DNA of 14,825 bases from Escherichia coli. Lineage in GTDB: Bacteria; Pseudomonadota; Gammaproteobacteria; Enterobacterales; Enterobacteriaceae. This document shows positions 5,552 to 5,933 of the stretch, piece by piece. Below the pieces are notes generated by a model. That model worked only from the letters and a program-made list of their open reading frames with translations. It ran no database searches and had not been told where the DNA came from. Position numbers and translations under genes: made by a program. The first letter of the stretch is position 1. The number at the start of each line of letters is the position of its first letter. The stretch lies in NCBI RefSeq assembly GCF_044324875.1, contig NZ_CP172189.1; one strand, given 5' to 3'.

Positions 5552-5933
5552 TGGCAAACAGTATCTTTCAGTAATCCTTGCTCAGTTCCGATTCTGACGT
5601 ATCCCCGTGTGGATCTGAAAAGGAGATAATTACGCTCTGTGGCCAACAGGAATAACTCAAGCAGCTCCTCTCTGATACCATCAGAAGAAGCATTAAACGC
5701 ATTCTGGCGTCGATTACAGAAGAAGCGGAACGCGTTCCAGGCTCCTGTTGCTATACACACTACCCACACTAACCCCATGGTTTTTGAGCGCCAGAAACGC
5801 GTCCGTATGCGTTTTAACGCGTTCCTGTGTTTTCAGCAAGGCCTGACTGAAGCTCGTTCCTAGTGCCCTGAACCAACCATTATCCAAAAAAATGCACCGG
5901 AAACGCGCTGACAACACTTTAGCCTGTCTTTGG

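Follow-up and report, generated by a model that had tools for sequence, protein, structure and literature searches.

AACGCG boxes downstream of mbeA in a ColE1-family plasmid are arm cores of long stem-loops common to many small enterobacterial plasmids

The window analysed here, a stretch of 14,825 nucleotides from Escherichia coli (contig NZ_CP172189.1), belongs to the colicin 10 / colicin Y type of ColE1-family plasmids. Its near-identical relatives are E. coli plasmids of about 8.9 kb, such as pSMS35_8 and pB771_9494. The mobilisation gene mbeA, annotated by RefSeq in the identical plasmid pB771_9494, contains mbeB and mbeD, and a MobC-family gene lies upstream of it. The ColE1-type oriT repeat at 8147-8164 is on the + strand, so that the + strand of the window is the transferred (T) strand. 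RNAI was the only Rfam family found in the window; Rfam matches in 5200-6100 and 3500-5300 were at chance level (best E at least 0.4). The backbone features referred to below are the following.

2524-2961: exc1, designated 'HTH protein' in the first-pass annotation
3042-3461: exc2, with the cer core next to it
3466-3495, - strand: cer crossover core, an exact match to the ColE1 core (context only)
5934-7535, - strand: mbeA open reading frame (ORF)
5934-5936, - strand: mbeA stop codon; a non-coding element starts directly 3' of it, and homology with the IncK2/Z copy ends there

The DNA between cer and mbeA has two kinds of relatives. By Blast, segment 5791-5933 is 90 to 93% identical to about 226 ColE1-like plasmids (hereafter p75-type), in which its counterpart is flanked on one side by the mbeA stop codon and on the other by a cer-like site, whose Rcd end is about 100 bp away. 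The stretch from about 3768 to 5804 is common, at about 79% identity, only to 17 IncK2/Z conjugative plasmids, where it is located among IS elements. ColE1 has none of this DNA. When the 2-kb insert was compared with E. coli genomes, the matches were dominated by an IS3 fragment. The cer core of the window plasmid is about 2 kb from the boxes described below, while cer abuts mbeA in ColE1.

A cluster of five AACGCG-centred boxes had been reported next to the 3' end of mbeA. All five are present in the sequence, two of them 1 nt away from the coordinates first given, and the cluster indeed borders the 3' end of mbeA, whose stop codon occupies 5934-5936.

5695-5704: box 1, aaacgcattc, degenerate
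5727-5738: box 2, GGAACGCGTTCC, a perfect 12-bp palindrome
5794-5804: box 3, gaaacgcgtcc
5814-5825: box 4, ttaacgcgttcc (first given as 5815-5826, 1 nt off)
5899-5910: box 5, ggaaacgcgctg

The five boxes are genuine and do not reflect chance. Counting both strands, the window has 15 AACGCG sites (6.8 +/- 2.7 expected), and among 1000 first-order Markov simulations none reached the four exact boxes found in 220 bp, while 35 reached three. An oriented 12-mer, CCNGRAACRCGY, which is an extended form of the box, gave 13 matches with at most one mismatch compared to 1.4 expected, a statistic that is optimistic since the pattern was defined after the data had been seen. Nine of these 13 matches fall in two clusters, 4391-4595 and 5730-5908, and the eight oriented copies (at 4391, 4444, 4538, 4584, 5730, 5791, 5817 and 5897) strictly alternate -,+,-,+. 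A sixth, decayed copy, absent from the list of the first-pass annotation, lies at 5851-5866. Box-to-box distances are irregular (34, 67, 20 and 86 bp), and TRF detected no tandem-repeat array in the region. The sole direct repeat present (D3, 5682-5751) is one pair of 35-bp units, each made of CAGAAGAAGC and a box, with a 10-nt exact core; its first unit bears the degenerate box 1, which is altered to AAGCACATTC in the IncK2/Z copy.

Several ORFs overlap the cluster. Two of them, 5639-5863 (+) and 5452-5778 (-), had been considered by-products of the palindrome with repeated NAF tripeptides, and this was borne out: the tripeptides are there because the sequence reads AAC-GCG-TTC. No NCBIfam or Pfam family matched the three overlapping ORFs, and the best PHROG match (E = 0.0015) was at chance level. 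A tblastn search against 72,556 plasmids returned DNA-level relatives only; with the p75-type relatives, amino-acid identity was about 56% compared to about 92% for the DNA. The frames are broken in relatives by a 1-bp indel and a 35-bp deletion, and p75 itself has two shorter ORFs in different frames. Such frameshifts among homologues already decide the coding question in the negative. By family searches and tblastn, then, no conserved gene was found and the region is non-coding.

It is consequently very improbable that a small mbeE-like gene lies downstream of, or overlaps, mbeA, as ORF 5714-5992 (-) of 92 amino acids or ORF 5452-5778 (-) of 108 amino acids. ORFs of 92, 108 and 74 amino acids do exist, PGAP annotated a 98-amino-acid 'hypothetical protein' at this site in two near-identical plasmids, and an ORF named mbeE has been placed at the end of the ColE1 mob region (PMC5864857). 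Like the ORFs of the window, mbeE starts near the end of mbeA and enters the downstream spacer on the same strand. However, that spacer is the cer site in ColE1 and a hairpin element in the window, the ORFs have no sequence in common with mbeE, and the frame is not conserved. The broken frames, the low amino-acid identity and the lack of family matches count against such a gene as well.

The boxes are instead the GC-rich cores of 13-16 bp arms, with consensus GCGCGTTTCYGG and complement CCRGAAACGCGC, that belong to long stem-loops. These form an unannotated, non-coding element common to many small enterobacterial plasmids. After the mbeA stop codon, the order on the - strand is HP-B, then the A box (box 4), then U3; two paralogues, U1 and U2, sit 1.2 kb from these mbeA-side hairpins, in the 2-kb non-coding insert.

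5850-5910: HP-B, stem-loop of box 5 and a decayed partner, starting 24 nt after the mbeA stop
5894-5910: box 5 as right arm of HP-B (GCACCGGAAACGCGCT), a 16-nt exact inverted match to 4536-4551
5851-5866: decayed left arm of HP-B (AGCTCGTTCCTAGTGC), with 10 of 15 positions paired in the window and 13 of 15 in p75-type plasmids
5806-5828, - strand: A box, that is, box 4 and its flank (ACAGGAACGCGTTAAAACGCATAC on the - strand), preceding U3 and also able to pair with box 3
5728-5804: U3, stem-loop of boxes 2 and 3
5790-5804: box 3 as arm of U3 (GCCAGAAACGCGTCC)
5743-5789, - strand: U3 loop with inner hairpin AACCATGGGGTT, aligning with the CCATGGGGATGGTTTG loops of ColK-type plasmids, pPCP1 and tiny plasmids
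5727-5742: box 2 as other arm of U3 (GGAACGCGTTCC plus AGGC), inverted repeat I2, kept in the IncK2/Z copy
4536-4597: U2 (GAGCGCGTTTCCGGTGC, loop with ATTATCC, CACCAGAGACGCGCTC), dG -31.3 / -25.2, z about -4
4389-4457: U1 (AGCGTGTTTCTGG / CCAGAAACACGCT), arms paired at 13 of 13 positions, z -4.6 / -4.0, followed by T-runs on both strands

Folding energies were compared with those of shuffled sequences. The z values were -4 to -6 for U1, U2 (-4.3), the p75-type HP-B and a hairpin of a 1597-bp plasmid (z -5.0 for the latter as DNA); U3 and the HP-B of the window had z values of -2 to -3. In p75-type plasmids, box 5 pairs with AGCGCGTTCCCGGTGC, 28 nt away, and the RNA dG of this HP-B is -35.0 for the - strand (z -5.1) and -26.2 for the + strand (z -6.2); as DNA, with its 16-nt arms, it reaches -17.9 (z -5.2). 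The window HP-B has -21.1 kcal/mol on the - strand and -12.4 on the + strand. U3 folds as DNA on the - strand with a dG of -16.4 (z -3.0), and a + strand hairpin at 5786-5825 with -18.2 (z -3.35). In the window, p75, pPCP1 and the 1597-bp plasmid, the element's strand carries a pas-like sequence, GTGAGCGAGGAAGCGGAAGAG; of 14 hairpins, 12 are more stable on the strand bearing it, by a difference of about 1 kcal/mol when DNA parameters are used. U2 and HP-B have both arms and the loop word ATTATCC in common. U2 differs from its IncK2/Z copy by two loop substitutions only and lies within the best-conserved island, the surroundings being about 79% identical.

The pairing has been maintained through compensatory changes. 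Over 13 arm pairs, 85.6% of cells pair, compared to 24 to 47% when the partner is slid, and four of 15 paired positions are altered on both sides. The covariation score was 0.157, compared to 0.112 +/- 0.017, and was reached by three of 500 shuffles, in a small sample of related copies. A C-G to T-A change in U1 is present in both arms. Box 3 might be taken as destroyed in p75-type plasmids, but the change is compensated: its core AATCGCG is matched by CGCGAT in the partner arm, though the loop is unrelated. Loops diverge, then, while arm pairing is kept. Uncompensated mutations are found in the HP-B arms of the window, pSD5, pKP4863_3 and L020/L023.

These observations modify the earlier interpretation of the boxes as an array of sites for a dimeric DNA-binding protein. 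Dyad symmetry is present, but the symmetry that matters is long-range, the boxes pairing with one another across 14-47 nt. Alternating orientation, irregular spacing and compensated pairing all speak against an operator array, as does a location at the 3' ends of convergent units, with no promoter. Operator or iteron arrays likewise have a short, locally dyad-symmetric motif that is repeated in non-coding DNA of plasmids; they differ from the present element, whose spacing is irregular, which has neither adjacent promoter nor cognate protein, and in which compensation occurs between distant partners and not within a 12-bp site. Long-range pairing, alternating orientation and compensation together argue for a folded single strand or a cruciform, rather than a row of 12-bp operators. 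The proposal that the exc1 product binds the boxes found no support either, as the two do not co-occur among carriers: p75-type plasmids, pPCP1 and the tiny plasmids have boxes without exc1, and ColE1 has exc1 without boxes.

A host DNA-binding protein could still read the arm sequence in duplex form, the inverted copies binding a dimer or multimer that bends or loops the DNA, possibly in the manner of a cer accessory site. We consider this quite unlikely. It would fit the strongly non-random clustering of the boxes, and the conservation of arm sequence across paralogues and distant plasmids, with 17 of 34 arm columns invariant. The same motif also lies beside the XerC arm in cer (GCTGAACGCGTTTTAGC-GGTGCG in ColE1, CAGAAACGCGTTCGGTGCG in p75-type and CCAGAAACGCGCTGAGCGCGTTTTAAC-GGTGCG in ColK-type plasmids), and the window cer palindrome is changed symmetrically to AATGCATT. 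On the other hand, core variation is compensated in the partner arm, which is needless for a duplex-reading protein; copy spacing varies irregularly from 14 to 86 bp, and boxes are deleted in two lineages. No plasmid-encoded candidate co-occurs with the element, exc1 being missing from most carriers.

The likeness to cer is itself limited. The accessory arm of cer-type Xer sites (ColE1 cer, ColK ckr) has in common with the boxes (G/A)AACGCG(T/C)T followed by GGTGC beside the XerC half-site. Unlike cer-type sites, the boxes have no XerC/XerD core in or near them, the CGCGTTT-GGTGC spacing differs by 2 nt, and in pPCP1 the Xer site is 6 kb from the hairpins. The only Xer core in the window is that at 3466-3495; next to box 5, the closest candidates match 6-7 of 11 arm positions and have a 5-bp spacer. 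Nor was homology to cer accessory sequences with an ARG box found: local alignment of the region with the plasmid's own cer scored 20-21, a chance-level value when set beside the null of about 18 +/- 2 obtained in a similar comparison. A derivation of the whole region from cer was therefore rejected, the short motif next to the XerC arm being all that they share.

The boxes are conserved in homologous plasmids, and the element extends well beyond them. A metagenomic plasmid contig (L110) led to a larger array of these hairpins in a colicin K-type plasmid. Blast from the ColK-type array and a Salmonella plasmid yielded 149 records, including 52 from Yersinia (Y. pestis pPCP1), with 75 to 85% conservation across otherwise unrelated backbones. 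The conserved unit of the window, made of box 4, box 3, the CCATGGGG loop and box 2, corresponds to the 'A box - arm - loop - arm' of these relatives, namely ColK-type plasmids, Y. pestis pPCP1 and tiny plasmids of 1.6-2.7 kb; its A box aligns with ACACGTTAAAACGACATACG in a Salmonella 2295-bp plasmid and with CGCTAAAACGACACCCG in pPCP1. Local alignment of the window - strand from box 4 to U3 scored 55 with the Salmonella 2295-bp plasmid, 34 with pPCP1 and 32 with ColK-type plasmids, against shuffle nulls of about 16 +/- 2 that come from a shorter query stretch. MAFFT had paired HP-B with the h2 hairpins of the other plasmids; local alignment replaced this by U3 plus box 4 as the h2 counterpart. 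A single plasmid carries two to eight copies of the repeat.

The carriers' replication systems are unrelated, comprising ColE1-type RNAI, a 146-amino-acid winged-helix Rep (1597-bp plasmid), RepL, and a Rep_1 rolling-circle initiator. Our comparison shows that the module is conserved across unrelated backbones and that no plasmid-encoded protein is common to its carriers. In the Rep_1 carrier, the 2295-bp plasmid, the element comes directly after rep; a rolling-circle plasmid of this type must have a single-strand origin. On the nicked strand of the ColK-type and 2295-bp plasmids, an orphan IncI1-type oriT follows directly 3' of the hairpins. The suggestion of a relaxosome accessory site finds a loose echo in the orphan oriTs that adjoin the element, but IncI1 plasmids have only the oriT core in common with these carriers and not the hairpins. 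Orientation relative to the nicked or T strand is the same in the window, p75-type plasmids, pPCP1, ColK-type plasmids and the 2295-bp plasmid; the 1597-bp plasmid has the element in reverse orientation to its IncI1-type oriT.

A metagenome scan with a 16-mer arm gave 120 loci, mostly chance matches in GC-rich genomes, together with about eight p75-type plasmids; chance matches aside, the 16-mer occurred in ColE1-type contexts only. The element was unmarked in all annotated records inspected, and we found no description of it in the searchable literature, which does not extend to older papers on pKL1, ColK and ssi signals. The stem-loop unit is thus unannotated so far and undescribed in that literature, although older papers may describe it.

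The boxes also mark deletion and mosaic junctions. Box 3 is the mosaic junction with p75-type plasmids, the homology between p75-type and window-type sequence breaking at 5791. A 106-bp deletion between the directly oriented boxes 3 and 5 is found in the 17 IncK2/Z plasmids, and a 35-bp deletion between box 4 and AGCGCGTTCC in pKP4863_3. As a side effect, the short repeats may serve as breakpoints for deletion or recombination.

These three endpoints could be all that the boxes amount to. The element would then have no cellular function and form a MITE- or REP-like palindrome family, spreading or persisting by recombination, slippage and arm-to-arm gene conversion; we regard this as unlikely, and equally so the corollary that the sole importance of the boxes is to give rise to rearrangements where backbone and cargo meet. 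The decay of the HP-B arm without compensation here and in other lineages would agree with it, as would the absence of the element from ColE1 and the identity of 5791-5933 to p75-type plasmids, which at 90 to 93% is not above that of the adjoining mbeA. As for MITE-like features, the unit has arms that might act as terminal repeats, and it is found on unrelated backbones; however, neither terminal target duplications (by eye) nor transposase-type ends were seen, and no empty/filled site pair for such an insertion was identified. The conservation across unrelated backbones also weighs against an absence of function, and the unit is kept in plasmids of 1.6-2.3 kb with almost no spare DNA. So do the two loop substitutions of U2, set against the divergence of its surroundings, and the confinement of the 16-mer to ColE1-type contexts in metagenomes.

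Alternatively, the hairpins may act at the RNA level, as REP-like stabilisers of 3' ends combined with a two-way terminator or insulator between convergent transcription units. They would act from the untranslated 3' tail of the mob operon (- strand), facing + strand transcripts from the insert or Pcer. This function seems to us improbable. Several observations suit it. HP-B starts 24 nt past the mbeA stop, and with RNA parameters the most stable folds are those of the - strand (-35.0 for p75-type, -21.1 for the window), 12 of 14 hairpins being better there. The + strand hairpin at 5786-5825 is followed by CCUGUGUUUUC, and its inner stem, 5807-5822, was flagged as terminator-like by a scan. 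T-runs follow U1 on both strands, and the 2-kb insert carries eight terminator-like hairpins compared to 1.6 expected, one of them with a compensated stem. However, on the - strand neither HP-B nor U3 is followed by a U-tract, and the scan of 5200-6100 detected no terminator on that strand. Intrinsic terminators do not typically have loops as long as 28-47 nt. The orientation with respect to the upstream gene varies as well: on the window - strand the element follows mbeA, but in the 2295-bp plasmid it follows rep on the opposite equivalent strand, and in pPCP1 and ColK-type plasmids no gene end adjoins it. Box 5 had also been a candidate mob-operon terminator, which was rejected, its segment folding no better than shuffles (z +0.83). 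REP/BIME palindromes do resemble the element: they are short, GC-rich, imperfect, clustered and of alternating orientation, and they lie untranslated between convergent genes and are prone to rearrangement. The element nevertheless belongs to a different sequence family, is plasmid-borne rather than chromosomal and present in few copies per plasmid, and has arms split by 28-47 nt loops with their own conserved inner hairpin.

Retention in tiny plasmids, presence in a rolling-circle carrier and adjacency to oriT lead us to favour a host-dependent signal in the form of a folded single strand, recognised by host factors. Its most likely nature would be an ssi/sso-type priming site, partly decayed here, a reading to which we give somewhat less than an even chance. 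Such a signal would prime complementary-strand synthesis whenever the plasmid is single-stranded, be it as conjugative T strand, rolling-circle displaced strand or lagging-strand template. Carriers that pass through a single-stranded stage include the Rep_1 rolling-circle plasmid and the mobilisable plasmids. The HP-B of the window plasmid, with one of its arms decayed, is probably a weakened copy.

The comparison with known ssi signals draws on architecture and context. Like ssi and sso, the element is non-coding, appears to depend on host factors, and consists of long imperfect stem-loops over 70-200 nt; both can pass from one small plasmid to an unrelated one and are often redundant or dispensable, and ssi and sso signals are specific in orientation. 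Its position after rep in the Rep_1 rolling-circle plasmid, on the strand of the pas-like sequence, would also agree. The absence of the whole hairpin element from ColE1 implies that it is dispensable for ColE1-type replication and mobilisation. Unlike the element, which follows the mob operon, known ColE1-type pas sites adjoin ori (8301-8321 here), and the arm sequence is more conserved than is usual for a purely structural signal. Other points weigh against a priming site. Conservation of the arm sequence beyond complementarity is also compatible with recognition by a sequence-specific protein, or with arm-to-arm gene conversion. HP-B has decayed without compensation in several lineages, ColE1 does without the element, and covariation is modest among copies related to one another. 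Fold energies favour the window - strand, whereas T-strand or displaced-strand logic favours the + strand; the agreement in orientation among ColE1-type carriers may reflect synteny, and the inverted element of the 1597-bp plasmid counts against the priming reading too.

A broader proposal, which we regard as doubtful but worth stating, is that the GCGCGTTTCYGG unit (A box, arm, CCATGGGG loop, arm) might be a portable, host-dependent establishment module of small mobilisable plasmids. It would provide priming after conjugative entry or rolling-circle displacement, often on the trailing side of oriT, and its carriers would be the ColE1-type, ColK-type, pPCP1, pKL1-like and rolling-circle plasmids of Enterobacterales.

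Among the major carriers of colicins and resistance genes are small plasmids of ColE1 type and tiny cryptic ones, the pla virulence plasmid of Y. pestis being one such plasmid, and much of their non-coding DNA is unannotated. In the present case, what looked like an operator array proved to be a transferable stem-loop module, carried by several hundred plasmid records whose replication systems are unrelated. If it is indeed a priming or establishment signal, it would help to explain how very small plasmids without a relaxase become established after transfer, and would be a new cis-element for annotators to mark. Even if functionless, the boxes explain the recurrent deletions and the site of the backbone-cargo junction downstream of mbeA. 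A scan of contigs with the mbeA 3' end retrieved eight short contaminant contigs, in which four different arrangements follow mbeA.

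The AT-rich 2-kb insert at window 3800-5790 has no conserved ORFs and is otherwise present only in 17 conjugative IncK2/Z plasmids. It contains eight terminator-like hairpins, compared to 1.6 expected. When the window and IncK2/Z copies were compared, islands of 90 to 100% identity were found at 4520-4720, 5120-5220 and 5460-5540, against a background of about 79%. These high-identity islands may mark small RNA genes. The following signals lie in the insert.

4755-4726, - strand: promoter-like site, 10/12 matches
4663-4637, - strand: terminator, downstream of this promoter-like site
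5524-5544 plus T7, + strand: terminator closing the 5460-5550 stretch

The first two signals delimit a candidate sRNA of approximately 90 nt (window 4630-4755). Its stem at 4640-4661 differs from that of the IncK2/Z copy by a compensatory C-G to T-A change. The stretch 5460-5550, which is 90 to 100% identical across the two plasmid lineages (window and IncK2/Z), may correspond to another small transcript; a 56-aa ORF within it was excluded by a 1-bp indel. The insert also carries a mobile element remnant.

3932-4165: left end and first part of orfA of an IS3-family (IS629-like) element

This piece is 99.6% identical to an IS3 copy of an IncK2/Z plasmid, and the annotation of the near-identical plasmid pB771_9494 lists it as an incomplete transposase.

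The loop of HP-B, the AACGCG-box stem-loop located just 3' of mbeA, contains TTATCCAAA (5872-5880), which agrees with the DnaA box at 8/9 positions; it also has the word ATTATCC in common with the loop of U2 (4564-4570), a stem-loop of the same family. The protein put forward by the first-pass annotation as a possible binder of these boxes, exc1 (entry exclusion protein 1, 2524-2961), gave a sub-threshold match (E 8e-10, 39 bits, cutoff 85) to NF038291, 'plasmid replication DNA-binding protein', a resemblance that would be odd in an exclusion protein.

An orphan oriT of IncI1 type, with about 93% identity to IncI1 plasmids, is present in plasmids of 1.6 to 2.3 kb that carry hairpins of this family.

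L152 (NZ_CP079154.1), 1107-1430: tiny-plasmid site
L151 (CP093118.1), 1760-1852 and 2215-2240: tiny-plasmid sites

The 1597-bp plasmid has in addition an inversely oriented ColE1-type oriT and a pas-like sequence. Cis-acting transfer and replication signals therefore make up most of the DNA of these plasmids.

In the window itself, two distinct ColE1-type replicons of 8910 and 5915 bp are joined head to tail and add up to its 14825 bp; for this reason the window is possibly a complete heterodimeric cointegrate.

9-113 and 8919-9021: RNAI
8147-8164 and 14062-14079: oriT repeat
8301-8321 and 14216-14236: pas-like sequence

Three such places were observed in a 22,976-bp relative, NZ_CP080265. Within the second unit, at window 10225-12643 and 12660-13451, a truncated mbeA adjoins an IS21-family element, whose istA encodes 548 aa and is overlapped by istB.

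Next to the XerC arm of cer, the ColE1-type Xer site, the window palindrome (3496-3520) is AATGCATT, where ColE1 has AACGCGTT; the two differ by a symmetric double transition that preserves the dyad. A copy of AACGCGTT at 12634 was rejected as part of a cer site, its position being inside the 3' end of istB.
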